From an uncultured cyanobacterium (GTDB lineage: Bacteria > Cyanobacteriota > Cyanobacteriia > Cyanobacteriales > CAWCAG01), in the NCBI GenBank assembly GCA_963803805.1, contig CAWDOD010000002.1, positions 192,001-256,000 of the forward strand: a stretch of DNA of 64,000 nucleotides, read 5' to 3'. Below are positions 1,000 through 18,991 of the stretch, piece by piece. Numbering within the stretch: the stretch's first letter is position 1; every line of letters starts with the position of its first letter. The translations under genes and the position numbers were made by a program. Under the pieces are notes generated by a model. The model was not told where the DNA came from. It saw nothing but the letters and a program-made list of their open reading frames with translations, and made no database searches.

Positions 1000-1209
1000 A
1001 GCTTAAAAATTCTACTCCCTCTTTAAGTACAGGTTCCAATCCTGGCAGAAGACTTTCCTGATGCTCTGACAGATTTTAAGCTTGACCTGATACTTTTATA
1101 CTAACTTCTTTCGCTTCTATCAAAGACAGTTTGAATACATTCCTCAACATACGGATTCGTGCAGCAAAATCAAGTCCATCTACAGATGCAATACGATAAA
1201 ATTTTTTTT
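1000..1209 (-). pseudogene. Remnant of a small helical (possibly immunity-like) gene, 5' end lost at the ISL3 end
   Basis: Manual translation FYRIASVDGLDFAARIRMLRNVFKLSLIEAKEVSIKVSGQA*NLSEHQESLLPGLEPVLKE; one in-frame stop; begins at the IS boundary. Confidence 0.4.
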
Positions 1210-2335
1210 GGTTCTACCGAACTTAAGATGTAAGATTAGCAATTGAAATGCCAAGTTAGAAAGATTCTGTGGCAAAAGTTGTCGAAGTTTCTAAACCCAT
1301 AAGCTCTCCTTTTAATCAACTTCAACTTGTTATTAATTCCTTCTACTACTCCTTGGGTTGTACCCCTATCAAAGTAGGCGATAATCTCTCCTATCCAACG
1401 CCTTATTGTCCCACAGCTTTTCGGGAAATACGAGTAAGCTTGAGCGCACCAATTGGCTATTGCCAATAATCCTTCACTCCAATTCTGGCTCTGTTCAAAT
1501 ATATTTCTAAATTCCTCTTTTAATCTGTGCATTCTTCCTCTATTTGGGATAATACCTCTTCTCCCCAGGCTTCCAGATATTGTGTTACTTCTTCTTGTGT
1601 TCGTTTTTCTACTATTCCTACTATGGTTCTTTTGTCTAAGTCTACTAAGACTACATAATAATTACCTTGCCCTTTGACTACTGCTATTTCATCAATACCT
1701 AATCTCTTTAAGTTCTGCGGCTTTCTTGAGGCTAATTCTGCTCCCATATCTTTGAGCATTGTTTCTATTTCTTGTTCGCTCAATCCGTTTCTTTGAGCAG
1801 TGTTTTTTAGGTCACTATTTAATACTTCTGCTACCACTTTTTTTTGAAATCTCTTTGTGTATGTCCTTTTTTTGGAGACATAATCTAGTTCTTCGTTGAA
1901 CTTCTTACCACATCTAGAGCATCTCATTTGGCGACGATTTATCTTGAGATATACTTGTTGAGTTCCCCAAGGTAAATCTCTTATGGTTAGCTGATTGTTT
2001 TGATGGAGTTTTTCTGTGGTTGCACCACAATTAGTGCAGGTAGCTTGTTTTTCTATTTTCTCTATGTGTAATACTATGCCTATGCCCTCTATGCACTGAT
2101 AATTATTTACCCTAACTCCTTCTAATTGAAGCAAGGAAGTCATGAGGTTTAGTTGAGGATTCGATGGCATTTGTATAAACTAAGTCTAAATACTGGTTTT
2201 ATTCTCATCTTTATTTAATCTTTGAATTCACCACAAAGCAACTCAGGCAGACTGTATAGCAACAAAACTATATATTTTGTATTTCAGTAGTTATCTGCTT
2301 ATCTTTCGTTTTTGCATTGCAAGTTCGGTAGAACC
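1210..2335 (-). mobile_element. ISL3-family element with internal deletion
   Basis: Perfect 15-bp terminal inverted repeats GGTTCTACCGAACTT (1210-1224, 2321-2335); no matching target duplication. Confidence 0.9.
1236..2170 (-). pseudogene. ISL3 transposase, split and internally deleted
   Basis: N-terminal part (CxxC zinc finger, LGIDEIA) 1520-2170 and C-terminal part ([20 protein letters not shown]) 1236-1532 in different frames; the middle of the DDE domain is missing. Confidence 0.85.
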
Positions 2336-2336
2336 A

Positions 2337-2426
2337 AATATCACTAATATCAAATTCAAAAGGCTTTAATTCATAAATAAACTGATAAGATAACTTGCGG
2401 TTGTGATAAGGCATATTTTTCACCAA
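2337..2426 (-). pseudogene. WD40 gene copy 4, truncated by ISL3 after ~30 codons
   Basis: VKNMPYHNRKLSYQFIYELKPFEFDISDI matches the start of the WD40 gene at 3145-4074, then ends at the IS end. Confidence 0.9.
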
Positions 2427-2435
2427 TACTAATAA

Positions 2436-3128
2436 TTAACCAAATTCTGGCAGTTCAATAATATCTCTTGGTTTTTGGGCTAAGTTTTGCTGTTCTGGGG
2501 TTTGACTTGTTTCTGGCATTGGCTCATATCGGAGCCAAGTATCTAAGTCTGAAGGAGAAGTATTGTATTGTTCCGGTCTAACGTTACGAAGTCTGCTGTT
2601 AATGTTGACATTAAAATTCACAAATTCTTGCCGTAGTTCGTTTATGCTATTAACATTGAATCCATTTTGTTTGGCGAATTGCTCAGCTTCACTAGCTTTC
2701 TGCGCCTCATCCATTTCAAAGTATTTACCTTCTTCTTTTTTGATGAGAATTAGCTCATCGAATACCTTTTTCATTTTGTCAATTTCTTCTTGTATATCTG
2801 AAAATGCTGAGTTATATAAATTGAGATGCTCTTCTTTAAGTTTTCCTAATGCAAAATTAACCCTATCCATATATTTAGAACTTTTCCACAGGGCTTTACC
2901 CAAGGTTTTGCCTTCTGTTGCTTGTTCCATAGCAAAGCCTAACTGTTCATTGATAGATACTAGATATTCGTCAACCCCTAAAGGAACACCTAGTCTAAGC
3001 TGCTGAGTTAGTACAACGTGTTCAGCAGCAGGGCCTGTATGGTAAGCTTCGTTGGAGAAGAAGAGGGCTTTGCTTTGTAGTTCATTTAATTGCAAAGTTA
3101 GCTGGTCTATTTCAGCAGATAACTCCTC
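2436..3128 (-). other. Orphan effector C-terminal cassette C3 (no ATG start)
   Basis: Paralogous to 7380-8075; starts at GAGGAGTTATCTGCTGAA (EELSAE) directly after an in-frame TAA; ends IIELPEFG. Confidence 0.85.
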
Positions 3129-3144
3129 TTAGCACAGGAATATA

Positions 3145-4074
3145 TCAAGACAAACTCACACGCCATACCTTAATATTCTTATCACTGTCGTAACTAGCCA
3201 AAAACCTACCATCTCCACTCCAAGCTACTCCGTAAACCCTGCCAGTATGACCTTCTATGGTTCCCAAGAGTTGAGCATTGCTGACATTCCAGAATTTGAT
3301 TAGTTTGTCTTTACTGCAACTGACCAAAGTTTGGCCATCATCACTAAAAGCTATGGATTTGACATTATCACCATGGGCTTGAATAGTTAGTAATTCTCTA
3401 TAGGTTTGCCAGTCCCAAAATATGATGCGCCCGTAATGAAGTCCCGCAGCACAGGTTTTTCCATCTTTGGTGATGGCAACAGTAGCAACACAGTCAGATA
3501 AATCCTTAATACTATGTCGAGGGCGACTACTAGGAATGTCAGAGAATTCTACATAGTTAATGTCGCTAGCGATAATATGTCCATTGGGGCTAATGTCAAG
3601 ACGATAACCCATAGTATTTGTGCCTGAAGAACGCTCTCCTGTGAGGATATTCCAAGTATCTGTCTGAGCGCTTCCTCCACTGATGAGGGTTACATTATCA
3701 GTACAGAAGGCTACTGATGTGTAGTCATGTTCAAACTCTGTGATGTATTTCAAAAAGCGTAGATGTTCACCTGTTTGTAGGTTCCACACGTGCAGGGAAT
3801 ACTTTTTGCAAGCTCCTGCTAGAAATTGACCATTGGGGCTGATTGCTAGAGAGTTTAGTGCGCCTGAACTAAGCCCAACAGGTCGCTTCTTGAGATTTTT
3901 GATTAGTCGTCCTGTTGAGAGTTCAAAAAGCTTAACGACGATTCCTTCGCTACTAGCTAAAATTTGACTGTTAGGAGTAATGGCAATATCACTAATATCA
4001 AATTCAAAAGGCTTCAATTCATAAATAAACTGGTAAGATAACTTGCGGTTGTGATAAGGCATATTTTTTACCAA
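3145..4074 (-). CDS. WD40 repeat protein W3 (putative immunity/cognate binder)
   Basis: GH...WD/WN-type repeats (AHGDNVKSIAFS..IKFWN, GHTGRVYGVAWS..IKVW). Confidence 0.9.
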   Translation of the reverse strand: MVKNMPYHNRKLSYQFIYELKPFEFDISDIAITPNSQILASSEGIVVKLFELSTGRLIKNLKKRPVGLSSGALNSLAISPNGQFLAGACKKYSLHVWNLQTGEHLRFLKYITEFEHDYTSVAFCTDNVTLISGGSAQTDTWNILTGERSSGTNTMGYRLDISPNGHIIASDINYVEFSDIPSSRPRHSIKDLSDCVATVAITKDGKTCAAGLHYGRIIFWDWQTYRELLTIQAHGDNVKSIAFSDDGQTLVSCSKDKLIKFWNVSNAQLLGTIEGHTGRVYGVAWSGDGRFLASYDSDKNIKVWRVSLS

Positions 4075-4083
4075 TACTAATAA

Positions 4084-4779
4084 TTAACCAAATTCTGGCA
4101 GTTCAATAATATCTCTTGGTTTTTGGGCTAAGTTTTGCTGTTCTGGGGTTTGACTTGTTTCTGGCATCGGCTCATATCGGAGCCAAGTGTCTAAGTCTGA
4201 AGGAAAAGTATTATATTCTTCCGGTCTAACGTTACGAAGTCTGCTGTTAATGTTGACATTAAAATTCACAAATTCTTGCCGTAGTTCGTTTATACTATTG
4301 ACACCAAACCTTTTCTCACTGGCTACTAGCAGGGCTGTATCAGCTTTTTGTTGCTCACTCATACCAAAGTAGTCACCTTTTTCTTTCTTGATGAGAACTA
4401 GCTCATTGAACAGCTTTTTCATTTTTTCAATCTCTGCTCGAACATCTGAATCAAATGCTGAGTTAAACAAGTCTGGATATTTTTCTTTAATTTGTTGCAA
4501 GGCAAAGTTGACTCGCTCCATATATTTAGCACTCTTCCAAAGAGCTTTACCCAAGCCTTTACTTTCTGTTGCTTGTTCCATGGCAAAGCCTAGTTGTTCA
4601 TTGATAGATACTAGATATTCGTCAACCCCTAAAGGAACACCTAGTCTAAGCTGCTGAGTTAGTACAACGTGTTCAGCAGCAGGGCCTGTATGGTATGCTT
4701 CGTTGGAGAAGAAGAGGGCTTTGCTTTGTAGTTCATTTAATTGCAAAGTTAGCTGGTCTATTTCAGCAGATAACTCCTC
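4084..4779 (-). other. Orphan effector C-terminal cassette C2 (no ATG start)
   Basis: Same boundaries and conserved ends as C3 and 7380-8075, with a divergent middle. Confidence 0.85.
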
Positions 4780-4795
4780 TTAGCACAGGAATATA

Positions 4796-5710: not shown

Positions 5711-5718
5711 TGTGATAG

Positions 5719-6410
5719 TTAACCAAACTCTGGTAATTCAATAATATTTCTTGGTTTTTGGGCTAAGTTTTTTGACTCTGGGATTTGACTTGTTTCTGGA
5801 ACTGGCTCGTACCCAGGCCAAGTATTTAAGCTTGAAGGATCAGTTTCATATTCCTCTGGTCTAGCATTACGAAGTTGGCTGTTGATTTTTACATTGAAAT
5901 CCATAAATTCTTCCCGTAGTTGTTTTATGCTTTCAACATTAAATTCTTGTTCCTTGGCTACTTGCTTAGCCGCATCACCTTTCTGTTGCTCATCCATCCC
6001 ATAGTATTCACCTTTTTCTTTTTTGATAAGAATTAGCTTATCAAACACCTTTTTCATTTTGTCAATTTCTTCTTGTATATCTGAAAATGCTGAGTTATAT
6101 AAATTGGGATGCTCTTCTTTAATTTTTGCCAAAGCAAAATTAACCCTATCCATATATTTAGAACTTTTCCACAGGGCTTTACCCAAGGTTTTGCCTTCTG
6201 TTGCTTGTTCCATAGCAAAGCCTAACTGTTCATTGATAGATACTAGATATTCGTCAACCCCTAAAGGAACACCTAGTCTAAGCTGCTGAGTTAGTACCAC
6301 GTGTTCAGCCGCAGGTCCTGTATGGTATGCTTCGTTGGAGAAGAAGAGGGCTTGCTTTGTAGTTCATTTAATTGCAAAGTTAGCTGGTCTATTTCAGCAG
6401 ATAACTCCTC
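5719..6410 (-). pseudogene. Orphan effector C-terminal cassette C1, 1-nt deletion near 6352
   Basis: GGGCTTGCT here versus GGGCTTTGCT in the other copies; length 692 nt versus 693/696. Confidence 0.8.
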
Positions 6411-6426
6411 TTAGCACAGGAATCTG

Positions 6427-7383
6427 TCAAGATAGACTAATACGCCATACTTTAATGTTCTTATCACTATCGTAACTAGCCAAAAACCTACCATCTCCAC
6501 TCCAAGCTACTCCGTAAACTCTGCCACTATGGCCCTCTATAGTTCCCAAGAGTTGACCGTTACTGACATTCCAGAATTTGATTAGTTTGTCATCGCCAGC
6601 ACTGACAAGAGTTTTACCGTCATTACTAAAGGCGATAGAACCAGTCACACCTGCGTGAGCATTTACGGTGAGTAGTTCCCTGTAAGTTTGCCAGTTCCAA
6701 AATATTATGCGTCCGTCATAAATTCCTCCAGCACAGGTTTTACCATCTTTAGTGATAGCAACAGTGCCTACACAAGCTGATGAACCTTGAAAGCGGTCGA
6801 TTTTAAGACTATGAGGGGAGCGAGTACGAGGAAGATCAGAGAACTCTACTCGGCTAATATCACTAGCGATAATATGCCCATTGGGGCTAATGGTAAGACG
6901 ATAACCCATCGTGTTTGTACCTGAAGAACGCTCTCCTGTGAGGATATTCCAAGTATCTGTCCTAGTTCTAGCTCCACTGATGAGGGTTAGGTTATCAGCA
7001 CAAAAGGCTACTGATGTGTAGTCATGTTCAAACTCTGTGATGTATTTTAAAAAACGCAGATGCTCACCTGTTAGTAGGTTCCACACGTGAAGAGAATATT
7101 TTTTGCAAGCTCCGGCTAAAAATTGACCATTGGGGCTGATTGCCAAAGAATTTAGTAGACCTGAACTAGCTCCCACAGCTCGCTTCTTAAGAGTTTTTGT
7201 TAGTCGTCCTGTTGAGAGTTCAAAAAGCTTTACAACAATTCCCTCACTACTAGCTAGAATATGCCCATTGGGACTAATGGTAATATCACTAATGTCAAAT
7301 TCAAAAGGCTTCAATTCATAAACACACTGGTAGGATAAATTACTGTTGTGATAAGACATATTTTTCACCATGCTAAAAATCAA
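6427..7383 (-). CDS. WD40 repeat protein W1, immediately downstream of the full-length effector
   Basis: WD40 repeats; start overlaps or abuts the stop of 7380-11408 (true start may be ATG 7371 or 7359). Confidence 0.9.
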   Translation of the reverse strand: MIFSMVKNMSYHNSNLSYQCVYELKPFEFDISDITISPNGHILASSEGIVVKLFELSTGRLTKTLKKRAVGASSGLLNSLAISPNGQFLAGACKKYSLHVWNLLTGEHLRFLKYITEFEHDYTSVAFCADNLTLISGARTRTDTWNILTGERSSGTNTMGYRLTISPNGHIIASDISRVEFSDLPRTRSPHSLKIDRFQGSSACVGTVAITKDGKTCAGGIYDGRIIFWNWQTYRELLTVNAHAGVTGSIAFSNDGKTLVSAGDDKLIKFWNVSNGQLLGTIEGHSGRVYGVAWSGDGRFLASYDSDKNIKVWRISLS

Positions 7384-10300
7384 CCAAACTCTGGTAATTC
7401 AATAATATTTCTCGGTTTTTGGGCTAAGTTTTGCTGTTCTGGAGTTTGACTTGTTTCTGGGATTGGTTCATATCTGAGCCAAGTATCCAACTCAGAAGGA
7501 GAAGTATCATACTGCCCTTGTCTAGCGTTACGAAGTTGGCTATTAATTTTCACATTAAAGTCTACAAACCTTTGTCGTAGTTGTTCTATACTACTAACAC
7601 CAAATCCTTGGTTATTAGCTTCTTGTTCAGCAGCATCGCCTTTCTGTTTCTCACTCATTTCAAAGTATTTACCTTTTTCTTTCTTAATGAGGATTAGCTC
7701 ATCAAATAAATCTTTCATTTTCTTAATCTCTGCTTGAGTATCTGAGTCAAATACTGGGTCATATGAGTCTGAATATTTTTCTTTGATTTTTGCTAAGGCA
7801 TTGTTAACCCTGTCCATATATTTAGAACTCTTCCACAGGGCTTTACCCAAGGTTTTACCTTCTGTTGCTTGCTCCATAGCAAAGCCTAATTGTTCATTGA
7901 TAGAGACTAGGTATTCATCTACCTCTAAAGGAACACGTAACTGAAGTTGTTGTCCCAATACCACGTGTTCAGCAGCAGGGCCTGTATGATATGCTTCGTT
8001 GGAGAAAAAGAGGGCTTTGCTTTGTAGTTCATTTAATTGCAGGGTGAGCTGGTCTATTTCAGCAGATAACTCCTCCGGAACCACATCAGCATCATAATTA
8101 CTTCTGCTATCCCTCAATTCCTCTAACCTTTCTCGTATTTCCTGACCTTCAACAAGATACTTCTCGTAGAGTCGATTGTAAGCTTCTAGCTCCGCATCTT
8201 CATTAACTGCTTTGATTTTTGCTGGATCTGTTTCAGGAGCATTGTTACTATCGCGTACCTGAATTTCCCCCGCCTTTCTGGTTTGGTTTAGTTGAACAAT
8301 AGTCTCGTTTAATTTATCTATAGCCCTACCATAAGTCTCATCAACTTTATCCAAACGCGCTTCTGTTACATCCCTCAAATCTGGATTGACATTTTCTAAC
8401 AATTGGTTTTTATACCGTAACCATTCCTCAGCACTCATATTTCTGCGTTGTTTCAGTAGCGCCATAACTTCTTGGTCTGCAAGAATTTGCCTTTGAGCTT
8501 CTGGGCTAACCCTGTTTTTGACCCTCTCTACCTCGACTTCTTGGACTAACCGTTTTCTTACTTCCTCTACTTGCTCACCAATTTCCTCAGCATCAAGCTG
8601 GTTAATATCTTCTGGTAGTTTTTGGTCAATTGCCAATTGTGCTTCGCTATTCTCTGATCTCAAATCATTAATTTCTTTAACCTTTGCCCTTATTTTCTCT
8701 TCCCGAACGGGCAGAAGCTCCTCCATTTCTTCGATTTCTTTAGCTAACTCCCTGTAAGGAGGGCTTCCTTCGGGTATTCCTATTTCAGGCATTTCTGCCA
8801 ATTCTAGTCGTTTCTCTGCTAAGTCTGTCGGTAACTTCAAGTACTCTTCCAACTTCCGTAAAGCTATCACTTCCTTAAGCCGATTACCCATAGCGCTACT
8901 GGGCATATGACCTGTGGTATAAACATTGGTATCAAAGACTGTACCAGACTCCTTACCAAACTCATTGCGGAACTGCCGATTAAATTCAATTACAGCTTCA
9001 ACCTCCACACTCTTAGCTCCAGAGAAAGTTACATCATAGTCAGATGTTGGTTGTTCACTACCCGCAGCAACAGGATCAAATTCTTGGGCAGAAGGTCTGT
9101 TTCTAGCGTTGATAAGACTTACTGCTTGTCCATACATTCTGTCAAAAGTTTTCTTACGGAATCTGGTTAACTGCAACATCAATTTTTCGTTGCGGCCTTC
9201 GGTGTATACCTGTTTTAGAATTGTTTTCCAATCATTGTCAAAGTGATCCATATAGGCTCTTAACTCAACATCAGAGAGCCTTTCCCTGTTTGTAGTAACG
9301 TCTATTCTGTCCCTAAAAAACCCTCGGTCGTTGTCTTTTACGGCTGTGATTAGACGACCTAACGTTTCCTCATTGCGTAAATTGTTAAGTTCAGTTGGTG
9401 TTAGTTCCAGAACTCCATTAATTTCCACAAATTTGCTGTCACTACCAACTTCAAAAGTCTCATCAGGATACTCTTGGCTAAGCCTGGTGATAGTTTGATT
9501 GTCTACTAAGTTTTCTTGGTTAACTGTTGATGCTTCTGAGCCTGGTTGTTGACCTGTTTCAACACCAACTACTGTATCTCCTGTTGCTGATGTGTTTTCT
9601 TGGTTAGCCGTAGATGTTCCTGAATCTGGTACTTCCTGTGATTGATCACCAACTTCTGTATCCTCTGTTAAATCTTGGTTGGTTGTTCCTGAGTCTGGTG
9701 TATTTCCTGATTGATCACCGACTCCTGTATTTCCCTCTATTTCTGGTGTGTTTCCTTGGTTGTCTGTTACTGTTTCTGAGCTTAGTTGTTGATCTGTTTC
9801 AACAACTCCTGCATCCCCTGTTTGTGAGTTTAAATCTCCTTGGTTAGCCGTTGAATCTTGGTTAGCTGTTCCTGAGCCTGGTTGTGCATCTGTTTCAACA
9901 CTAACTCCTGTATTTGCCTCTGTTCCTGGTGTGTTTCCTTGATTGCCTGTTACTGTTCCTGAGCTTGATGAATTAGGGTTAGGGCCTCCGTTCAGTTCTC
10001 TTCTTGCTCCAGCAGCACCCAATGCTAAAAAGCCACCCGTAACCGCCAAACTAGATAGTATTCTCAATATCTGTCCAAATTTTTCATTCCTAGATGACTC
10101 AGAATCAAGAATCTTCTCAATCTGATTACCTGCTTCCACTGTAATTATTACAGTAGCCCCTGCATCAAGAGCCACTGGAGTAATAGTCAGAAACTTCTCG
10201 ATATTTCTAATCCGGAAGTTATCACCTTGGCTTATTGCTCGTATCGCCAAAAGACCATCTAATAAACCGGAAACAATTCCCAAAACATCGATAGTAATGT

Positions 10301-11408
10301 TGGCAGTACTTGGTTCTGTCTTACCTAGTTCATTGGCAATACTTAGACCACTAGCTGCTATATCTGCTGCTGTTGCCAACCCAAATAGACGGGGAGCATA
10401 TCTCTGAGTTGCTGGATTCAACGTAGCTACGATACCTAATACAGCTAGGGTCAAGGCTGCCCAACTCAACTCGCCAGATAATAAACCTAATACAGAGCTG
10501 CCATTGGTTTGCATTGTTCCATGGGCTTCCTCTAATTTCAGTGCGTTTGCCTCGTTCTCTTCAATTGCCCATTGAATCAAGCAAGGAGGATATTCGTTAT
10601 TGAACATGAAATTATAGATGGCAGCTTGTGCATCTTCGCCACCATATTCCATTTTGGAAGCACCTGGAGTTAAGTCTAATAACTTAAAGCGTCCAGAATT
10701 ATCGCTATTCCGACCTATGTAAAGTGAAAGAGGAGTTTTCTTCGTTTCCCCTGTTTCTTCCTCTTGTTCACCAAAGTGAATAGCCTTGATTGGAATGTCT
10801 TCGCCTTCTTTAATTTTCCCGATATTACTGTCAACTTGCTCTATGTGGTTTTGCCACTGTTCAAGGCGTTCACCTTCTTCTTTGTTGAGAACAGCCTGGC
10901 GGTACTGGGTTACGCCAATTAATTCACCGTCGCTATTGTATTCTTCACAAACAATGTGATAAACGTTTTTTTCGGCAATAATCCACCGTGCTTCTTCTCT
11001 TTCACTTTTGAGGTCATAAGCTTCTTTGCCTTCAATTTCTATTTGTTGAAAATCATGGAAGATGGCAACATTAACTGGTGTTTCTGGGAGGACATACCAA
11101 CGTCTGCTCTGAGCATTTTGGTTAGATGTTAGTTTGTAGGTATGATACTCATGGTTAGGAGCAGGTTTAATAACTGCTGGATTAGGGCCACTATTGGTGA
11201 TGTATGTTTCACCAGCTTTTTGCTCTTTAACTCCGTATTTCCCTAGCTCAAGATTTTTCAGTTCTAAGTTGGTTCGGAATGTGATATAGTCTTTTTCTTC
11301 TAGTTCCTCTAAAGCATTACCTGGATTGGGACAGTGTTTTTTCTTCTCTTCTTCAGGGCGTTCTACCAAGGAATGCTCACGCTCTGGCTCTGGCTTTTGC
11401 CCTCTCAA
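7380..11408 (-). CDS. Large putative toxin/effector (hydrophobic helices, low-complexity linker, nucleotidyltransferase-like C-terminal domain); lacks an ATG start
   Basis: 1342-aa ORF; hydrophobic segments LSWAALTLAVLGIVATL and LAVTGGFLALGAAGA; motif GSEQPTSDYDV..FDTNVY; lies in a toxin-immunity context. Confidence 0.65.
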   Translation of the reverse strand: MRGQKPEPEREHSLVERPEEEKKKHCPNPGNALEELEEKDYITFRTNLELKNLELGKYGVKEQKAGETYITNSGPNPAVIKPAPNHEYHTYKLTSNQNAQSRRWYVLPETPVNVAIFHDFQQIEIEGKEAYDLKSEREEARWIIAEKNVYHIVCEEYNSDGELIGVTQYRQAVLNKEEGERLEQWQNHIEQVDSNIGKIKEGEDIPIKAIHFGEQEEETGETKKTPLSLYIGRNSDNSGRFKLLDLTPGASKMEYGGEDAQAAIYNFMFNNEYPPCLIQWAIEENEANALKLEEAHGTMQTNGSSVLGLLSGELSWAALTLAVLGIVATLNPATQRYAPRLFGLATAADIAASGLSIANELGKTEPSTANITIDVLGIVSGLLDGLLAIRAISQGDNFRIRNIEKFLTITPVALDAGATVIITVEAGNQIEKILDSESSRNEKFGQILRILSSLAVTGGFLALGAAGARRELNGGPNPNSSSSGTVTGNQGNTPGTEANTGVSVETDAQPGSGTANQDSTANQGDLNSQTGDAGVVETDQQLSSETVTDNQGNTPEIEGNTGVGDQSGNTPDSGTTNQDLTEDTEVGDQSQEVPDSGTSTANQENTSATGDTVVGVETGQQPGSEASTVNQENLVDNQTITRLSQEYPDETFEVGSDSKFVEINGVLELTPTELNNLRNEETLGRLITAVKDNDRGFFRDRIDVTTNRERLSDVELRAYMDHFDNDWKTILKQVYTEGRNEKLMLQLTRFRKKTFDRMYGQAVSLINARNRPSAQEFDPVAAGSEQPTSDYDVTFSGAKSVEVEAVIEFNRQFRNEFGKESGTVFDTNVYTTGHMPSSAMGNRLKEVIALRKLEEYLKLPTDLAEKRLELAEMPEIGIPEGSPPYRELAKEIEEMEELLPVREEKIRAKVKEINDLRSENSEAQLAIDQKLPEDINQLDAEEIGEQVEEVRKRLVQEVEVERVKNRVSPEAQRQILADQEVMALLKQRRNMSAEEWLRYKNQLLENVNPDLRDVTEARLDKVDETYGRAIDKLNETIVQLNQTRKAGEIQVRDSNNAPETDPAKIKAVNEDAELEAYNRLYEKYLVEGQEIRERLEELRDSRSNYDADVVPEELSAEIDQLTLQLNELQSKALFFSNEAYHTGPAAEHVVLGQQLQLRVPLEVDEYLVSINEQLGFAMEQATEGKTLGKALWKSSKYMDRVNNALAKIKEKYSDSYDPVFDSDTQAEIKKMKDLFDELILIKKEKGKYFEMSEKQKGDAAEQEANNQGFGVSSIEQLRQRFVDFNVKINSQLRNARQGQYDTSPSELDTWLRYEPIPETSQTPEQQNLAQKPRNIIELPEFG
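9510..9965 (-). repeat. Intragenic degenerate peptide repeats (T/N/Q/G/S-rich linker)
   Basis: TVTGNQGNTPGTEANTGV / TVTDNQGNTPEIEGNTGV; VETDAQPGS / VETDQQLSS / VETGQQPGS; GDQS..PDSGT twice. Confidence 0.8.
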
Positions 11409-11461
11409 TCTTTGAGCGAGAACATTTGACTCAGATTCAATGCAATCAATTGGCTTAGTAA

Positions 11462-11899
11462 TTAATTAGCAAATTCGTTTTGGAATTTTGAAAGAGAATT
11501 GTATAAATCCTTCTTAACTGAATCATCAGACGAAAAATTACAGACATAAACGTTGTAGATTCTTTCAACTTCTTTTAAAATCGCCTTAGTTAGTTCTTGT
11601 TGACTAGACTTATTAATGATTTTCTGCGAATTTGTCATGAATGAAAAGTTATTATCTTTGTCTTTAAATAACCAAGGCTCAAACCCACTATCAATCCCCA
11701 ACGGCAATTGTGCTTGAGTTTGATTAGTTGTGATAAATTTCTCAATGCAATATAAAAGTTGACAGAGTGAGACAAATATCATGACCGAGCTTTTTGTAGA
11801 CAAGCTACCATACTCACCACTAAAAGTTATATGACCCTGAGAGTAACCATCTATTGGCTCCTGATCATCTTGTAATACTTTGATTTTTACTGATAGCAC
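11462..11899 (-). CDS. Putative immunity protein for the DUF4157 toxin
   Basis: 145-aa ORF whose GTG start directly abuts the TAA (11900-11902) of the reconstructed toxin. Confidence 0.7.
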   Translation of the reverse strand: MLSVKIKVLQDDQEPIDGYSQGHITFSGEYGSLSTKSSVMIFVSLCQLLYCIEKFITTNQTQAQLPLGIDSGFEPWLFKDKDNNFSFMTNSQKIINKSSQQELTKAILKEVERIYNVYVCNFSSDDSVKKDLYNSLSKFQNEFAN

Positions 11900-12124
11900 T
11901 TATTCACTCCTTACAGGGAAAGCTGTAACTACTCTTCCATTGTTTCCAGTGTCTATTACTACTCTTATTCTGTCACGACGACCATTGACTTTAATTCTCT
12001 TTTCAAATATTTGAAGCGTTTGTTGTGGGTTAGATATCCTCGTACCTTTCTTCACAACTACTTGAATCGCCTCTTCTATCTGAGCGCGAGTTGTACCTGG
12101 AGGAAAAAAATCGGTTGTTGAACC
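11900..12124 (-). pseudogene. Severed 3' end of the DUF4157 toxin gene (nuclease-like tip)
   Basis: Reads TTDFFPPGTTRAQIEEAIQVVVKKG...IRVIVDTGNNGRVVTAFPVRSE* in frame with 13137-15704 once the IS and one target copy are removed. Confidence 0.9.
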
Positions 12125-13136
12125 ACGTGAGTTCGATGAAGTTAAAAAACAGCAGAAGGAAGTTCAGCTAGGCCTTTGGGGTCAAGGTCAAGGGAAGGCT
12201 TTTTGGGCAAGAAAGTATAAGCGATTAGACCAGCTAAGAGATTAACCAAAAAATTCCAAACGCTACGGTGTCTTGAATGCTGAATCTGACAGATATTCTT
12301 GAGCTGGTCATTAACAGTCTCAATCAGAGAACGCTTACGTAGGAGAATCTTATCCTGAAGACGCATTAACTTCGGCTTCATATTTTTCTTGCGGTGTGTA
12401 ATCAGTTGTAGTCTTTGTTCATAGAGTTTCTCAAACAAATCCTGAGAAATATAACCTCGGTCGCCAAATAACTTACCAATCAAGCCATCAGCCATATCTG
12501 GCACAGGGTTACGGTCATCAGTATTACCCTCTGTAAGTTTGAAAGCAAGCAGCTCACCTTTGTCATTAATAATTAGATGTAGCTTGAAGCCATAATGCCA
12601 TCCCATAGCATTTTTGCCCCAACCTACCAAACCTTCAAAAACACGGTGGCTTTTGGAGCGATTCGGGTGGCAGACCTCAATGGGGGTAGAATCAATAAAG
12701 CTGATGCCGGTAATTTCTCCTCGAAGAGTATGTAGAAAACAGCAAAGAAGCATTAAGCTCCACGGCATTAGCTCTACGAATCGAGTGTAACTGACCAAGT
12801 TGGGAAAAGCTTTCTTCCAGTAAGGCAAGACTTGTAGAGTGTAAAATTCTTTAAAAGTGCGAAATCCCGAACCATGAAAGGCAATGACAATGGTCATCAC
12901 TTCGCTTAGGCTTAGGCGGGAGCGACATAGACGCTCTCCACAAGTTGCTGTTAACATTGGCTGTTGTTGCCAATGCCTCTCAAACCTTTGATAAAAGTCA
13001 TCTACCTGACAGAATATTTGGGTGATATCGAGACGAGATACAATATTGGACATAGCATCAGATTCTGATTAAGATTCATTTTCAGCATACCTCTGATGCT
13101 TTTCTTTTCTCTCTTTTTCCTCCGTCGAACTCACGT
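12125..13136 (-). mobile_element. IS982-family element
   Basis: Inverted repeats ACGTGAGTTCGA (12125-12136, 13125-13136); 6-bp target duplication TGAACC (12119-12124, 13137-13142). Confidence 0.95.
12142..13053 (-). CDS. IS982-family transposase
   Basis: FIDSTPI, YGFKLHL, GDRGY, RSLIETVNDQLK motifs; intact 303 aa. Confidence 0.9.
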   Translation of the reverse strand: MSNIVSRLDITQIFCQVDDFYQRFERHWQQQPMLTATCGERLCRSRLSLSEVMTIVIAFHGSGFRTFKEFYTLQVLPYWKKAFPNLVSYTRFVELMPWSLMLLCCFLHTLRGEITGISFIDSTPIEVCHPNRSKSHRVFEGLVGWGKNAMGWHYGFKLHLIINDKGELLAFKLTEGNTDDRNPVPDMADGLIGKLFGDRGYISQDLFEKLYEQRLQLITHRKKNMKPKLMRLQDKILLRKRSLIETVNDQLKNICQIQHSRHRSVWNFLVNLLAGLIAYTFLPKKPSLDLDPKGLAELPSAVF

Positions 13137-15704
13137 TGAACCTGAAATAGTTCCCGTAATATGTCTTCCCTCAATGTGAATCCATCCCCATCTGTTAGTT
13201 CCATCTTCTAATCGGGGTGTTCCTCTCCAAGGGGGAGGAGTACTTCCACTAGTTGCTCCTGTTCCTCCACTAATAGTGAAAACACCGCTAACTAAATCTA
13301 CTAGGTCTTCAGCTAGATTGCCCGTCGCTTCAACAACAACACTTCCTCCATGCACAGAAATTGCTGCGCCACCAGCAATAGCAGGAGCGCCGGCGATACA
13401 ACCTATTCCAGTTATACACAAAGAGCCACCGCCTGTAATTGCACCGCCCCCGGCAATTATCTCCAAAATACCTGTAACAGTAGCACCCAAATCTCCGGCT
13501 GTTCTTCCTGCTTCAAACGGCCCGCTTTTCGGAAGTGATTCCTCTAATACTTCTAAGTCTTCGCTAACTGTAGAAGTTCCCAAAGAAACTACTTCTAGTA
13601 CCCATCGTCCTGATTCTCCATTATTACGCAACCATTGATAGAAAGCTCCTGCAACAAACAAGGCAGGGCCGCGACTGATATTCTTCATTCGAGAAAGTAG
13701 GTCTTCAACACCACTACGCTCTTGTGGAGTTAGAACACTCACTGCATTTAAAGTTTCTTGAACTTGCGGGTTTAGCTGTCCTATTTGACCTTTGATATTC
13801 GCATCTTGGAGCCGATTAGTAATCTCAGGGTAATAACTTACCATTACTGAGTTCCGTAAGGCTCGATAAAACTTTTGCTCAGCTTCAGTTGCAGGATTCC
13901 TGTGATTGGTTACAGCCTCAAAGATATTTAAAGCACGCTCACGAATGTTTGCTTGTGTACCTTTGTTGGGATCACGATCATTTGCTGGAAGATTCTCAAA
14001 ATACTCCTGTAGAATTGGCTGTTGCTCAGGAGTTCCCCCTACCGCTTGTTGAGCATTACTGTCCCAATAAACTAAGACAGCACGACGAATAGAATCTCTG
14101 TCGATAGGCATCCCTTGGGTATGTTGGAACCTCGCAGCAATCTCGTTAACTTTGTTTTCTATGTTACGGATTTTCTCATTGCCTCTTTCGCTTTGGGCAA
14201 TGTCAGTTATGATTCCTGTGAAAAGATCACGGTAGGTAATGTCTTGCTCCAGGTTTAAAGCTACTGGTTGCTCTGAAGGAACAATTGTTTGGTTTAGTGC
14301 ATTTACATCATTGCGGCTATTTCGCCTACGCCTAATCCTTTCTTGAAGTTGAGCCTTACTAACAAGATGGCGCTCTACCAATGTATAAAGAATAGCTTGA
14401 GACAAATCTCCAGCACCGTTTTGCTGAGTAATTCCTCCATATATTTGACTCATTTGTTCCCACAAGGGTGTATTTTCCCATCTTCCTCCATGCTGTTTAG
14501 CATATTCGTTTAAGACGGCATCGAGTTCAGCAATATATTCTGGATTATTGTTGCTAGTAATTTGATCTGATTGCTCAAAATACTCTCTCTGCTGCTCAAA
14601 GTTTTCGGTTGAATCACCACAAATTCCGTGCATTACCTGAACAGTTCTAGTTCCGTCAAGGTTGAGATTTTCACTTGCCTGTATTAATACTCCTCGAGAA
14701 CCTGGAGTGCATCCTGATCCTAATATGACACCGAGTTGTTCTGCTGCGTAGTTTATGCTGCTTTCTGGAGTCTCTGATCGTCCAGGTGGAACTCTAATAA
14801 CTTGTGAATTGGCTTGAGCAATAAGATTCTGACCGCCAGGGTTAGGATTTTCATCAGGAACTAGTTGAACCTTTGTTCTTGTTGGTTCAGATGACTTTAA
14901 CAATGGCTCAGTCAGTTCATTTTCACGGGCATTCTGGGTTTTCTGTACGGTAGTTTCTTCTTCTTTTTTTTCTTCCTTAGCCTGAACCCCCTTATCCCCA
15001 GCCCCACCCTGCTGGACAACATGAGTAAGTTCATGGGCAATCAACTCCTGTCCACTCTCATTGTCAGGATTATATTCACCCTGCTTAAAAAAGATATCCT
15101 GCCCCGTAGCAAACGCCCGTGAATGCAATGAGCGATTCAACTGATTAGCATTACCATCTGTATGTACCTTTACCCTACTAAAATCCGCACCAAATGCCTC
15201 CTCCATTGGCTCTTTGATACTCTCAGCTAACCCCTGCCCACTACCTCTAGAACCCTGAATAGTCTGCTCTATAGCTGGAGTTACCCCTCCTCCACCAACT
15301 CCACCTCTACGCATCACTGTAGGTTTCGCTACTGGTTCAACTTTACTTTGTACTGCTTGCTCAGAAACAGGAGAGTTGATCTGTTCTACTACTTTGGCTG
15401 CTGTAGCATCCGCTTCCTGCTCATATTTATCCCCAACTTCCCCTACTGTTAGTTTTGTTTGTACTTCTGTGGTTTCTTCTTGGCTCTTAGCTTCACTTGC
15501 TTGAGATTGCCGTCTCAGAGCCTCTCTGATCAGAAAATTAGGGATTCCCTGAGAAACAGGTGGATTCTTCCAGCGACTCCCTTTTTTCTTTGACTTGCTA
15601 GACCTTTGAATACCCACATCCGGAGGCTCAAAAGAAGGAGACTTACTAGAGGAAGTAGCAGGGGGTGTCCAATGAGAAGATTTTTGGATGCGGGCTTTAC
15701 TCAT
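13131..15704 (-). pseudogene. DUF4157 (eCIS core domain) polymorphic toxin, interrupted by IS982
   Basis: GDKYEQEAD, MEEAFGADFSRVKVHT, RAFATGQDIFF, LIAHELTHVVQQ motifs; Gly-rich hydrophobic pre-toxin segment; tip begins GWIHIEGRH; the current stop is supplied by the IS end. Confidence 0.9.
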
Positions 15705-15728
15705 GAGTCTCTAATTATTTGATAAATA

Positions 15729-16723
15729 TAGTTATTTTAATTAAGTTTGAGACAATAAGGAGGTAAAATGAAAAGAGTATATTTATAATAGCTCAACATA
15801 ATGCCATACAGTCTAGATTTAAGAAAAAAGGTCATAAAATATATAGAAGATGGTGGAAAGATTAGGGAAGCAGCAAAAGTCTTTAACATTGGAAGAGCGA
15901 CAATATACAGATGGTTAGAGCGTGAGAATCTGGAAGCCACGAAGGTAGAACGCCGTCAAAGAAAACTGGATTGGAAAGCATTAGAACAAGATGTCAAAGA
16001 AAATCCAGATGCTAAACTATCGCAAAGAGCCAAGAAATTTGGGGTAAATCCAAGTGCGATCTTCTATGCTCTCAAAAAAATGAAGATAACTAGGAAAAAA
16101 AAAGAACTTCGTTATCGAGAAAGAAACAGACTTGAAAGAATTAAGTATTTAAGAGCATTAAGAGAATTAATAAAAATCTACGGAAGTGAAAGCCTAGTGT
16201 TTATTGACGAGTCAGGATTTGAGGAGATGCAGTCGGTGCATTATGGATGGTCAAAAAGCGGTGTGACCCCGCGTCGGCGTAAGACGCAAGGGAACGCACA
16301 CCAAGAAAGGCAAAAACTGTATGGAGAAAAACAAGGTAAACGAGGTAAAAGAGAGAATCTAGTAGCTGGTAGAAGAAAAAAGTCAAAAAACTTAATAGCC
16401 CCAATGTTGTTTAGAGGAAGTCTGAATGCAGAAGGATTTGAAGGATGGTTAAGGAAGTATTTATTACCATCATTAACCATAGCGTCGGTACTAATTATGG
16501 ATAATGCACCAATTCATAGGAAAAGAATGATTAGAGAGTTAGTGAAAGAAGCAGGTCATGAAGTATTATTCTTGCCGAAATATTCTCCTGACTTCAATGA
16601 TATTGAGCATGATTTTAGTGCTTTAAAGAGAGGAAGAATGTATGCAGATTCTGGAACATCTGTAGATGAAATTATTCGTAACTATTGTGCAGCTTAATGT
16701 CTCATTGTTATTTAAAATAACTA
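15729..16723 (+). mobile_element. IS630-family element
   Basis: Imperfect ~26-bp inverted repeats TAGTTATTTTAA..TGAGACA flanked by duplicated TA (15727-15728, 16724-16725). Confidence 0.9.
15801..16697 (+). CDS. IS630-family transposase with in-frame palindromic insert
   Basis: MPYSLDLR HTH, FIDESG, MDNAPIH, LPKYSPDFNDIE motifs. Confidence 0.9.
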   Translation: MPYSLDLRKKVIKYIEDGGKIREAAKVFNIGRATIYRWLERENLEATKVERRQRKLDWKALEQDVKENPDAKLSQRAKKFGVNPSAIFYALKKMKITRKKKELRYRERNRLERIKYLRALRELIKIYGSESLVFIDESGFEEMQSVHYGWSKSGVTPRRRKTQGNAHQERQKLYGEKQGKRGKRENLVAGRRKKSKNLIAPMLFRGSLNAEGFEGWLRKYLLPSLTIASVLIMDNAPIHRKRMIRELVKEAGHEVLFLPKYSPDFNDIEHDFSALKRGRMYADSGTSVDEIIRNYCAA

Positions 16724-16970
16724 TACGTCTGGGTTATAGTTTGAGACAATAACTGCTATCTCTCCTTAATTGAGGAGAAGATTCCCTTAACCGGATATAG
16801 GATTAATTTTTAGTGGCGATGATTTTTCTTTTGCTGCTGATTCTACTAGATGGGAATTGATTTAGCAATCTTTTGGCTCTTTTTAGCCAATAATCTGCGT
16901 ATAAGTATTGAAGCAAACTCTATCAAACTGTGTAAGTATATATGGTTAAATCTCCCAGCCAGCAATTTCT

Positions 16971-18991
16971 ATGTCTACCAAGGTTACTGATGCTCAGAGT
17001 CCCCTAAACTCAGATTACTTGATGACTGCTTTGAGTCCTATTTACCAAAGCTTAATTAACTTTACTCAAAGGCAATCAGGAAAAGATGTTGATGAACAAC
17101 CAGTTGATGTGAGTTCTCAACTAGCAGCAATTTCTGCTTCTGCCGCTACTGTTCCCCACTTAGAAAAGCTTTGTACAATTTTTGAGCTTTCTAGTTTTGA
17201 GCGGGATGTTCTTTTACTATGTGTTTGCCGAGCAGTTTTTCCTGATGTCCCTTATTTGTTGAGTTTGGCTCAGCGCCGTGATGAGTTTGATTTTGTCACT
17301 TTTGGTTTAGCTCTACAATTATGGGAAAATACTCACTGGCAAGCAATTCTGCCCCGTTCTCCTCTACGTTACTGGCAGTTGCTGCTGGTTGGGACAAAGC
17401 AAGAAGATGTGACTCTGGCTCCTTTGCGTATTGATGAAGCTATCTTGCATTATCTGATGGAAGAAGATTACTATGACCCCTATTTAGAAGGAGTTATTGA
17501 ACCAATAGCTATTGAGATACCTCATCTCCCTTCTTCCCATGAGGAGATTGTCAAGAGCATCACTAAGGCTTGGTCTAATGTATCTACTTTATCTGGTGAT
17601 GATACTCTCCCAGTTGTACAGTTGTGTGGAGATTCGATTAGCGCTAGCAAAGAGATTGCTCAGGCAGTTTGTGAGGAGCATAATTATCTTCTTTACTCCA
17701 TAGAGAGTGATAGTTTGCCTGTCAGTAATGATGAGTTCTCTTTTTTCCTGCAACGGTGGCACAGACAAGCTCGATTAGTTAATGCTGTTTTGTTGTTGGA
17801 TTGCTCTGGTATTTCTTCTGAAGATAGAATCAGACAAAAGGCAATTTCTCGGTTGCTGAAGAAGGTGAAAACACCTTTGCTTGTTTGTAGCCAGATCAGG
17901 ACAAGTTTAGGTCATGGTGAGGTGGTTATTTTTGATGTACCCTCCTTAAGTCATGGTGAACAGTTAGCTATGTGGCAAGCTAGTTTGGGTGAGGTGAGTT
18001 CTTTGCTTAATGGTACTGTGGAGTCTTTGGTGACTAGTTTTAACCTCAATGGGGCAACCATTCAAAATGCTTGTTCTACAGTTATTAGTCCCACTGAGGC
18101 ACAACAACCAACTCCTTTAGCAGAGCAGTTGTGGTCTTTTTGCCGTAGCCAAGCCCGTCCTCAGTTGGATGATTTGGCTCAACGGATTTCGAGTGAAGCG
18201 CAATGGGATGATTTGATTGTGCCACAGAAGGTGAAGAGGTTGTTACAGGAGTTGCTGACTCAGGTACGACAAAGGGCTACGGTTTATCAGCAGTGGGGTT
18301 TGGCTAAAGGTAGTGGTCGAGGTTTGGGAGTTAGTGCTTTGTTTGCAGGAGAGAGTGGGACAGGGAAGACTTTGGCGGCTGAGGTGTTGGCTAATAAGTT
18401 TGGTTTGGATCTTTACCGTATTGATTTGTCTCAGGTGGTGAGTAAGTATATTGGGGAGACGGAGAAGAATTTGGAACGCATTTTTCGTGCTGCGGAGGGA
18501 GGGGGAGTAGTTTTGCTGTTTGATGAGGCGGATGCTCTTTTTGGTAAACGTACAGATGTTAAAGATAGTCATGACCGTCACGCTAATGTGGAGGTGAGTT
18601 TTCTGTTGCAGAGGATGGAGGCTTACCAGGGTTTAGCGATTTTAACGACAAATTTGAAAGATTCTTTAGACCGGGCTTTTTTACGTCGTTTGCGTTTTAT
18701 TGTTGATTTTCCTTTTCCTGATGTTGAAAGTCGGAGTAAGATTTGGCGCAGGATGTATCCCCCACAGACCCCAACTAGGGTTTGGATTATCAAAGGTTGG
18801 GTCAGTTGGCGATGACGGGGGGCAATATTCGTAATATTGCTTTGAATGCGGCTTTTTTGGCTGCTGAGAGTGAGAGGGTGGTGATGATGAGGCATATTCT
18901 GGCAGCAGCAAGCGCTGAGGCGATGAAGTTAGGGAGAAGTCTGAGCGATCGCGAGACTCATGGTTGGAATTCTTCCCGTTATGATTTTTGA
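16971..18991 (+). pseudogene. Afp15/Pvc15-like AAA+ ATPase, frameshift near 18777-18781
   Basis: Walker A GESGTGKT, Walker B LLFDEAD, VVSKYIGETEKNL, DSHDRHANVE; C-terminus GLDYQRL..GGNIRNIALNAAFLAA continues in another frame. Confidence 0.85.

Follow-up and report, generated by a model that had tools for sequence, protein, structure and literature searches.

Gene content of the island

The DNA considered here is a 64,000-nt stretch (the window, meaning this whole stretch at its full length) of the 5.3-Mb genome of an uncultured cyanobacterium of the order Cyanobacteriales (GenBank assembly GCA_963803805.1, contig CAWDOD010000002.1, hereafter C2; the window is C2:192001-256000). Its first 19 kb hold an island of predicted toxin, partner and ATPase genes, which we interpret below as probable cargo of an extracellular contractile injection system (eCIS). 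The listing of open reading frames (ORFs) and the Pfam scans bear out the layout given in a preliminary description of this DNA, namely an AAA ATPase gene divergent from a co-oriented run of genes on the minus strand (Table 1). The run was said to consist of a DUF4157 gene, a small gene, a 1342-aa effector, a WD40 gene and three further tip/WD40 units. All of these genes were recovered, but three mobile elements had been overlooked and a frameshift in the ATPase gene had been missed; of the three further units, all three orphan tips (copies of the 3' end of the effector gene) are present, but the array has only three complete WD40 genes, the fourth being a remnant. Family scans covered 19 ORFs within 1-24 kb and 27 ORFs of at least 150 aa within 24-64 kb; no sheath, tube or baseplate family was found among these scanned ORFs, as had been stated, and the remainder of the window consists of ordinary genes.

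Table 1. Features of the island and its border (positions in the window)
Feature	Position (nt)	Strand	Basis
Outer membrane protein (OMP) beta-barrel gene	150-704	-	ORF listing and Pfam scan
Degenerate ISL3 element at the array end	~1205-2330, borders approximate	-	Transposase in two ORFs (1236-1532 and 1520-2170); Pfam scan
Fourth WD40 gene, 89-nt 5' remnant cut by ISL3	2337-2425	-	Repeat family D6, 76-97% identity to other WD40 starts
Orphan tip 4, 219 aa	2436-3134 (ORF 2436-3095)	-	Homology to main gene; no family
WD40 gene c, 309 aa	3145-4074	-	Pfam scan
Orphan tip 3, 220 aa	4084-4785 (ORF 4084-4746)	-	Homology to main gene; no family
WD40 gene b, 304 aa	4796-5710	-	Pfam scan; 67-73% identical to a and c
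Orphan tip 2, in-frame stops at 5' end, longest ORF 193 aa	5719-6417 (ORF 5719-6300)	-	Homology to main gene
WD40 beta-propeller gene a, 318 aa, candidate immunity or partner gene	6427-7383	-	WD40 E 9.4e-33; overlaps/adjoins effector stop
1342-aa effector (main gene)	7380-11408	-	ORF; no Pfam/NCBIfam match; homologues
145-aa ORF, candidate EndoU immunity gene	11462-11899	-	Position only; no Pfam/NCBIfam family
3' remainder of split EndoU toxin domain	11903-12124	-	Partial PF14436 match
1013-bp insertion sequence (IS) with DDE_Tnp_1_3 transposase (12142-13053)	12125-13137	-	BLAST copies, terminal inverted repeats, direct repeat
5' part of DUF4157 toxin gene (857-aa ORF 13131-15704)	13138-15704	-	PF13699 E 1.3e-30
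IS630-family element (transposase 15801-16697)	15726-16725	+	HTH_Tnp_IS630 and DDE_3
eCIS-type loader ATPase, winged-helix domain (WHD) and AAA+	16971-18991; ORF ends 18815	+	Pfam AAA E 5.8e-26, WHD E 2.3e-14

The DUF4157 protein has a charged N-terminal region, an eCIS_core domain (aa 159-235) with the HExxH motif HELTH and, after a long linker, an EndoU-like RNase domain of which only the first half is present. Its 857-aa ORF terminates two codons inside the 1013-bp IS, and beyond this element 79 aa (11903-12139, the first residues lying in the IS end) match positions 66-128 of the 129 positions of PF14436 (EndoU_bacteria) with an E value of 4.8e-4 and 20.9 bits, a score under the cut-off of 25.3 because only half a domain is present. 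A stop ends the EndoU remainder and the 145-aa ORF starts directly after it. By homology, the 857-aa gene is a DUF4157-linker-EndoU RNase toxin gene interrupted within its toxin domain by the IS, and the 145-aa ORF, judged by its position only, is likely to be the EndoU immunity gene. That a single gene had been split by the IS into the 857-aa and 1342-aa ORFs was considered and rejected, since the piece behind the IS completes EndoU and is followed by a stop and by a separate 145-aa ORF.

The 1013-bp IS bears terminal inverted repeats and is flanked by a direct repeat, and BLAST of the genome found 13 other copies of it, 11 of them at an identity of at least 99.5%. The IS630-family element (three other genome copies at 99.9% identity or more by BLAST) separates the ATPase and DUF4157 genes and lies 22 bp upstream of the DUF4157 ATG. 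The ISL3 element has only partial, diverged relatives in the genome (85-96% identity in the BLAST search).

The ATPase translation contains Walker A (GESGTGKT) and Walker B (LLFDEAD) motifs and is 65% identical to an intact 664-aa paralogue through aa 603. A -1 frame break near 18779 ends the ORF, and the homologous C-terminal lid resumes in another frame to the end of the gene; an intact reading frame is lacking, with the last ~60 residues out of frame. The locus was compared with contigs from two DNA metagenome runs, one of which shares 80% of its sampled words. One contig bridges 12116 to 13135 across the 1013-bp IS with an 8-nt overlap (depth 4.1), and in another an additional A follows 18778 (depth 20.4 of 26.7). 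Because these contigs show both, IS-free and in-frame forms occur in nature. The frame break may be an assembly error; the higher depth of the extra-A contig points to a related strain and not to the same one. In this assembly the island is decaying, with an IS in the toxin domain, an IS630 element that separates the DUF4157 gene from the promoter region, and a frameshifted ATPase gene.

Probable loader ATPases and an injection apparatus elsewhere in the genome

The family of the ATPase was tested with the intact, 66%-identical paralogue, which was translated and compared with a plasmid collection. It matched an AAA ATPase of pADAP from Serratia entomophila (50.9% identity over aa 393-614, E 1e-60), encoded between the tape-measure and DUF4255 genes of a contractile injection system (CIS), which is the Afp15 position, and, over 99% of its length, an ATPase from a plasmid of Mycobacterium sp. 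JS623 (40.7% identity), whose complete eCIS cluster has the order sheath, tube, DUF4255, ATPase, two DUF4157 genes, gpV, gp25 and J. NCBIfam gave only generic AAA matches for the ATPase of the window and nothing for the other proteins of the locus. On the strength of these matches the ATPase is assigned to the Afp15-type family of eCISs, as the preliminary description had implied in calling it the loader ATPase of an eCIS-type locus; it does not cluster with AAA families foreign to eCISs, and it co-occurs with the cap gene Pvc16_N (see below). In Algoriphagus, the AAA+ ATPase Alg15 is reported to be needed for cargo loading, with a disordered cargo N-terminus as the signal (bioRxiv 10.64898/2026.05.27.728243), and by analogy the ATPase of the window would be a cargo loader.

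The genome holds three further ATPase paralogues and one fragment (paralogues at C3:166,969, C3:202,946 and C9:22,537). The paralogue at C3:166,969, 66% identical to the ATPase of the window, is divergent from a gene for a DUF4157-Ntox16 toxin followed by a DUF6714 gene, and the one at C3:202,946 adjoins three small DUF4157 genes. The first 240 aa of the DUF4157 protein of the window (the trunk) share 67% identity with the trunk encoded beside the 66%-identical ATPase and 44-47% with the remaining DUF4157 proteins of this genome, which fits a duplication of ATPase and trunk as one unit.

The locus around C3:202,946 (C3:197-204 kb, L024) is a second cargo island in its own right. Its ATPase paralogue is shorter at the N-terminus (422-aa ORF), each of its three small DUF4157 genes is followed by a small ORF of ~136-139 aa, and one of the DUF4157 proteins ends in a serum-amyloid-A-like domain (PF00277, E 4.7e-25).

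Structural genes were sought in the genome by family searches, and the matches were scanned with Pfam. On C2, ~83 kb from the island, there are a sheath gene (293,889-295,604), three gp19-type tube genes (292,217-293,772) and a Pvc16_N cap gene (297,001-298,299). Contig C4 carries gp25, Baseplate_J and Tail_P2_I genes at 343.7-347.6 kb and, at 523.3-525.4 kb, genes for a 604-aa GPD/base_V spike (VgrG-like) and a PAAR protein, beside an ATPase-family fragment. The genome contains nine DUF4157 matches. The sheath, tube, cap, baseplate, spike and PAAR genes at three other loci support the earlier suggestion that the island serves an apparatus encoded elsewhere; eCIS structural homologues, whose absence from this genome would have spoken against it, were found.

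On C2, the sheath operon and the Pvc16_N gene, which is divergent from it, are separated by a gene for a response regulator with a GerE/LuxR-type output domain (C2:296,130-296,894). GerE-type regulators have been reported beside eCIS operons, which this regulator fits (PMC8213781).

Among 61 genomes searched from the order, Pvc16_N was found in 22, and all 22 also have the ATPase (E ≤1e-40) and DUF4157. In the 39 genomes without Pvc16_N there were weak partial ATPase matches in two and weak DUF4157 matches in five. These counts are given without a statistic, the genomes being related and non-independent. Several genomes have more ATPase than cap matches (e.g., four versus one in G041 and G060), so extra ATPase copies are common in the order. 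A stand-alone eCIS cargo locus without structural genes of its own, as claimed in the preliminary description, is supported by the apparatus genes, the ATPase family and this co-occurrence.

DUF4157 is described as an eCIS core and toxin marker (PMC8213781), and DUF4157 proteins with long linkers and C-terminal toxins are established (PMC8213781; PMC11297309). For the Anabaena CIS, two DUF4157 proteins are reported as putative effectors (PMC8894136).

The 1342-aa effector, its module and the tip/WD40 array

The 1342-aa ORF begins with a TTG codon. A charged N-terminus is followed by a conserved hydrophobic helical region (~aa 300-470), by low-complexity repeats (475-640) and, at the C-terminus, by a part of 650 aa (691-1342, the module); the protein gave no match in Pfam or NCBIfam. 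The linker of low-complexity repeats corresponds to imperfect DNA repeats of 69-96 nt (9500-9970, minus strand; families D8 and D9) and is rich in Thr, Gly, Asn and Gln. Its length differs between strains, one metagenome contig having 251 other letters for 278 nt at 9500-9970.

A word-based search with residues 640-1342 returned 23 proteins, of which seven carry PF13699 and six PG_binding_1. Giants of 1700-1950 aa that begin with DUF4157 or PG_binding can be aligned with the 1342-aa protein only over their C-terminal two thirds; in this alignment the region ~170-472 is weakly conserved, with five hydrophobic segments, and residues 701-1342 are 51% identical. A 1384-aa homologue from another source (P0002, 81% identical) has neither DUF4157 nor PG_binding and aligns from residue 59. 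Residues 691-1342, used as the query of an exhaustive HMMER search, matched 554 representatives at E ≤0.001 (238 at E ≤1e-10). When 28 of these relatives were scanned with Pfam, 23 had no family and five had eCIS_core (two), PG_binding, Annexin or GT4-conflict domains outside the module; on the module itself no Pfam family was found in any of the 28.

In a 56-sequence alignment G783, S784, S789, D790, D792, D826, N828 and Y830 are invariant and E1138, Y1140, Q1154, E1172, K1196, Y1197 and R1200 nearly invariant. The AlphaFold2 model of the module is one compact, mostly helical unit (predicted local distance difference test, pLDDT, 91.3; predicted template-modelling score, pTM, 0.90). The GS, the DxD and the third Asp sit on its only strands (module residues 88-91, 101-106 and 137-140), and a helical insert of ~300 residues lies between this core and the tip. 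With the whole module, Foldseek against the Protein Data Bank (PDB) gave nothing at E ≤0.001, the structural alignment of the whole model was dominated by helical-bundle rows, and a profile search of PDB sequences gave nothing below E 0.05. The core (705-845) folded alone reached pLDDT 90.5. Its best structural match, a weak one, was yeast poly(A) polymerase (Z 5.7, rmsd 3.6, 106 residues aligned), and its top row in Foldseek was the GlnE adenylyltransferase domain (E 0.18); nucleotidyltransferases (NTases) of the Pol-beta superfamily made up 31 of the 50 best rows (poly(A) polymerases, terminal uridylyltransferases, GlnE, DncV, oligoadenylate synthetases, small alarmone synthetases, DrrA and MNT).

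The pattern hG[GS]...DxD with a third acidic residue on the next strand is that of Pol-beta-like NTases, and Rx4-6H is the catalytic motif of HEPN domains. The module model agrees with Pol-beta-superfamily NTases in presenting GS...DxD...D on a helix-strand-strand-helix-strand core, but differs from them in having no sequence match to Pfam, NCBIfam or PDB and in its long helical insert. Several members of the superfamily, e.g., GlnE, DrrA/SidM, MntA-HepT and MenT/AbiEii, are enzymes or toxins with a helical substrate-binding domain. The tip (470-605 of the model) matched a HEPN chain (5yep_B) with Z 7.6, rmsd 2.9 and 109 of 133 residues, values that are common for helical bundles; by reading, the Rx4-6H motif was not found in the four tips, the conserved R1200 having no H within four to six residues. 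We regard the module, with moderate confidence, as an NTase-fold enzyme whose C-terminal helical subdomain would complete the active site. The tips were also considered as self-contained toxin domains; this was rejected, because their near-invariant residues belong to the same fold as the core in one compact model.

The array is made of four copies of a ~1.65-kb unit with 77-82% nucleotide identity, far beyond chance, each unit beginning at main-gene codon E1112 and ending 17 nt beyond the WD40 stop; a genome search found the module nowhere else in the genome. Every orphan tip has an in-frame TAA just upstream and no ATG or GTG at its head. The tips are 74-84% and the WD40 proteins 67-82% identical. 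Synonymous divergence (dS) is 0.29-0.77 among tips, with ratios of non-synonymous to synonymous divergence (dN/dS) of 0.19-0.43, and 0.60-0.85 among WD40 genes (dN/dS 0.17-0.27). The non-synonymous deficit is significant for all six tip pairs (Fisher p 5e-3 to 3e-13, from approximate site counts). The tip and WD40 copies are old and under purifying selection. Variation is concentrated in residues 85-175 of the tips and residues 1-110 of the WD40 proteins, and similarity is distributed as a mosaic: tips 3 and 4 have a dS of 0.11 at the 3' end and of 0.45 in mid-tip; among the WD40 proteins, a closely resembles c at the N-terminus and b closely resembles c at the C-terminus. This mosaic shows that exchange among copies occurred. 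Conservation is highest in the first 85 codons of the tips (dN 0.04-0.11), a stretch that could act as an arm for recombination.

Exchange of C-terminal toxins on a conserved trunk

Relatives of the module were found at 11 loci of reference genomes, of which three from Planctomycetes were excluded (they match residues 720-831 only) and eight were kept (L028-L035), and at 61 metagenome loci, of which four are close relatives (L044-L047). Three Nostoc loci (L029-L031) encode DUF4157-module fusions of ~1900 aa, and in Rivularia (L032) a module ORF comes after a DUF4157 giant. At L028 a module gene of 1887 aa is accompanied by two WD40 genes and by an orphan tip of 152 aa. In L034 an ATPase-family gene (E 4.7e-169) is divergent from a 696-aa module gene without DUF4157 and a WD40 gene, and in Baaleninema simplex PCC 7105 (L035) the ATPase gene lies 2.6 kb from a 1136-aa module gene, again without DUF4157. 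In this last genome, ~eight WD40 paralogues stand downstream of the single module gene (L035:11417-18433), apparently with no interleaved tips, and an intact ISL3 transposase gene lies upstream.

The comparison that bears most directly on the island comes from a genome of the same genus (G027), in which the ATPase DNA is 88% identical to that of the window and the divergent gene has 82% nucleotide identity to the DUF4157 trunk of the window (aa ~38-663). Past ~aa 663 the gene of G027 encodes not EndoU but the module (31% identity to the copy in the window). The protein has 1623 aa with eCIS_core at 135-211, and a 171-aa WD40 ORF follows in place of the 145-aa gene; the genes flanking the pair differ from those of the window. 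The C-terminal toxin and its partner have thus been exchanged on a conserved trunk between congeners, which is direct comparative evidence that DUF4157 trunks exchange their C-terminal toxins. It supports the whole-toxin replacement postulated earlier for this locus and, because the orthologous trunk carries module and WD40, places the module among DUF4157 cargo.

The gene downstream of the module was recorded for 14 close loci (the window, L028-L035, L044-L047 and G027). It encodes a WD40 protein in eight (in L045 one gene further downstream), an AAR2-like protein (PF20981 and PF05282) in five (L029-L031, L033 with two copies, and L046) and a YbjN-like protein in one (L032). The AAR2-like bacterial proteins (267-310 aa, encoded directly downstream of the module at Nostoc-type loci) match both halves of AAR2, a eukaryotic spliceosome-assembly factor. 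In a FastTree phylogeny of the modules, L046, L032 and L029-L031 form one clade (support 0.986), the AAR2-partnered L033 falls outside it, and the WD40-partnered modules occupy two or three clades, with deep supports of only 0.68-0.82. Within the window the WD40 genes start 0-25 nt past the tip stop. The tight downstream position, the unrelated fold in sister clades and the arrays of extra copies together form the signature of an immunity gene, which suggests that the WD40 partner is an immunity protein; homologous toxins of contact-dependent growth inhibition (CDI) with unrelated immunity folds are documented (PMC6851490).

A probable satellite cargo island and its alternatives

Taken together, the locus is probably a satellite cargo island of an extracellular or thylakoid-type CIS, with structural genes at three other loci, that is decaying in this assembly. 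Its core is the divergent pair of an Afp15/Alg15-type AAA+ ATPase and a DUF4157 polymorphic toxin, the latter built as a conserved trunk (N-terminal region, DUF4157 and linker) with an exchangeable C-terminal toxin, followed by an immunity gene. In this strain the trunk bears the EndoU-type RNase with the 145-aa immunity candidate, the module being placed in the separate 1342-aa gene downstream, and in the congener the orthologous trunk carries the module and its WD40 partner. The module itself would probably act as an NTase-fold enzyme with a catalytic GS/DxD/D core packed on the helical C-terminal tip, and the WD40 propeller encoded after each copy would bind and neutralise it. The three start-less tip/WD40 units probably stem from an old duplication in tandem of the stretch between codon 1112 and a point just beyond the WD40 stop. 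The intact WD40 copies could confer immunity against variant toxins of neighbours, and homologous recombination through the conserved 85-codon 5' arm could bring the tips into the main gene, as with the orphan modules of CDI/Rhs.

Several observations weigh against parts of this interpretation. Since neither the ATPase gene nor the DUF4157 gene is intact, this copy of the island may be inactive. DUF4157 is absent from the 1342-aa protein, whose N-terminus shows no alignment (18% identity) with the N-terminal regions of the cargo proteins encoded in this genome, and the PG-binding domain that replaces DUF4157 in six of the 23 homologues may point to another export route. The fold matches of the core are weak, as the Z and E values given above indicate. 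By their sequences the orphans are taken as maintained variants of one subdomain, not different toxins, and the fine tip/WD40 replacement of the preliminary description was not borne out: its tips are copies of a single C-terminal subdomain rather than alternative toxins, and no recombinant was seen. Neither a tip-to-tip nor a main/orphan joint was found in the contigs of the two metagenome runs, in which rare variants are dropped. Exchange with the main gene has not been recent, because the main tip differs from the orphans by a dS of 0.69-0.77, and the divergence of tips and WD40 genes showed no obvious co-variation in the three pairs available. A switching function of the orphan tips is nevertheless plausible by analogy with other systems.

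Those systems are CDI (cdiA-CT/cdiI) and Rhs, in which orphan modules, i.e., start-less 3' fragments with a partner gene and a conserved 5' recombination stretch, lie downstream of the full gene. The island resembles them in its start-less fragments and partner genes arrayed after a full gene, and in the exchange of C-terminal toxins on a conserved trunk between strains. It is unlike them in that its orphans are variants of the same subdomain, half an enzyme fold, and not unrelated self-contained toxins, and in that delivery is proposed to be by an eCIS rather than by a type V or type VI secretion system.

The start-less tips also suit an unlikely but possible alternative, in which the 1342-aa ORF and the three tips are a stack of displaced modules, pushed downstream when an EndoU and immunity cassette replaced the C-terminus of a DUF4157 giant, so that they are no longer delivered and only the WD40 immunity works. 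Such a history would account for the in-frame stops just upstream of the tips, for the TTG start of the 1342-aa ORF right behind the EndoU/immunity cassette, for its alignment with only the C-terminal two thirds of the giants, and for the G027 gene, in which the same trunk is fused to a module of this kind. However, the 4-kb frame of the 1342-aa gene is entirely open, the 81%-identical P0002 likewise lacks DUF4157, the module genes of L034 and L035 stand beside an ATPase gene without DUF4157, and the orphan tips are under purifying selection, all of which count against it.

It is improbable, in our judgement, that the WD40 and AAR2-like genes instead encode chaperones or adaptors that help the module to fold or to be loaded, or eukaryote-like factors delivered together with it, with the repeated units a plain segmental duplication that has no part in specificity. 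Both WD40 and AAR2 are protein-interaction scaffolds typical of eukaryotes, and at ~300 aa these partners exceed most immunity proteins in size; many eCIS toxins are moreover said to lack immunity genes (Geller et al., PMC8213781). Such roles sit less well with the position of the partner gene immediately downstream, 0-25 nt from the stop, and with the replacement by an unrelated fold in sister clades and the toxin-less extra copies in L035, which is the pattern of immunity genes and has a precedent in the unrelated immunity folds cited above (PMC6851490). That the module/WD40 array has nothing to do with an injection system, being an independent polymorphic toxin or surface protein with another export route that came to lie beside the ATPase and DUF4157 genes by chance or IS activity, is very unlikely, since the 1342-aa protein without DUF4157, the homologues fused to PG_binding_1 (P0004-P0009), the relatives linked to Annexin and GT4-conflict domains and the abundance of IS elements in the island are set against fusions of module and DUF4157 in several genera and on the orthologous trunk of the same genus, and against an ATPase-family gene within 2.6 kb of the module gene in L034, L035 and G027.

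Read as a satellite cargo island, the locus compares with known eCISs as follows. Its DUF4157 protein has the layout of eCIS-associated toxins (EATs) such as Cgo1/Cgo2 of Algoriphagus and Alr3311/Alr3312 of Anabaena, i.e., an N-terminal region, DUF4157 with HExxH, a long linker and a C-terminal toxin. Like systems with Afp15, Pvc15 or Alg15, it has a WHD and AAA+ ATPase of the same family as those in afp and other eCIS clusters, and apparatus genes in the genome. Unlike the known eCIS/EAT systems, its cargo and ATPase genes lie ~83 kb or more from any structural gene, four ATPase paralogues (plus a fragment), each beside its own cargo set, face a single cap gene, the structural genes are split over three loci, and this copy of the island is IS-disrupted. 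The concept of a satellite cargo locus is already known, because in the haloarchaeon Halogeometricum borinquense DUF4157 proteins encoded away from the CIS cluster, as here, are reported to be secreted in a sheath-dependent manner, the toxic ones being neutralised by a downstream gene (PMC11566945). The ATPase paralogue, the orphan modules and the WD40/AAR2-like partners set the present locus apart from that system as described there.

New here are the loader paralogues paired with trunks, the unnamed NTase-like module, the WD40/AAR2-like partners and the orphan tip/WD40 array; in open-access full texts no description of the multiplicity of loaders and trunks, of the module, of WD40/AAR2-like immunity or of the orphan array was found. 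As a tentative and rather speculative extension, in cyanobacteria of this order one apparatus might be served by several interchangeable ammunition islands, each with a loader ATPase matched to the N-terminal trunk of its cargo, in which C-terminal toxin and immunity cassettes are swapped and the NTase effector tips, as determinants of specificity, are kept with their WD40/AAR2-like immunity genes as a small recombinable library. If true, a propeller-type or AAR2-type immunity family and an orphan-cassette system would thereby be described for an eCIS for the first time. The choice and loading of cargo are a current open question for eCISs, which are being engineered as delivery tools, and several ATPase paralogues per apparatus, each beside a matching trunk (66%/67% identity), make the specificity of loader and cargo testable. 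The module represents a large family (the 554 relatives) with a confidently predicted fold and a likely NTase active site but no sequence match to Pfam, NCBIfam or a solved structure, and the WD40/AAR2-like proteins are candidate immunity proteins; if the WD40 and tip variants set specificity, the array would be a compact model of toxin-immunity co-diversification.

Two further features lie in the remainder of the window. The first 200 residues of a 390-aa protein (26188-27360, plus strand) hold DarT, an ssDNA thymidine ADP-ribosyltransferase domain (E 4.3e-50); for the C-terminal half of this protein the scan gave no family that passed its threshold, and this half may represent an antitoxin-like part fused to DarT. 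At 47701-50195 (plus strand), overlapping genes for an Eco57I/N6_Mtase methylase and a BsuBI/PstI-type endonuclease form a type II restriction-modification pair.

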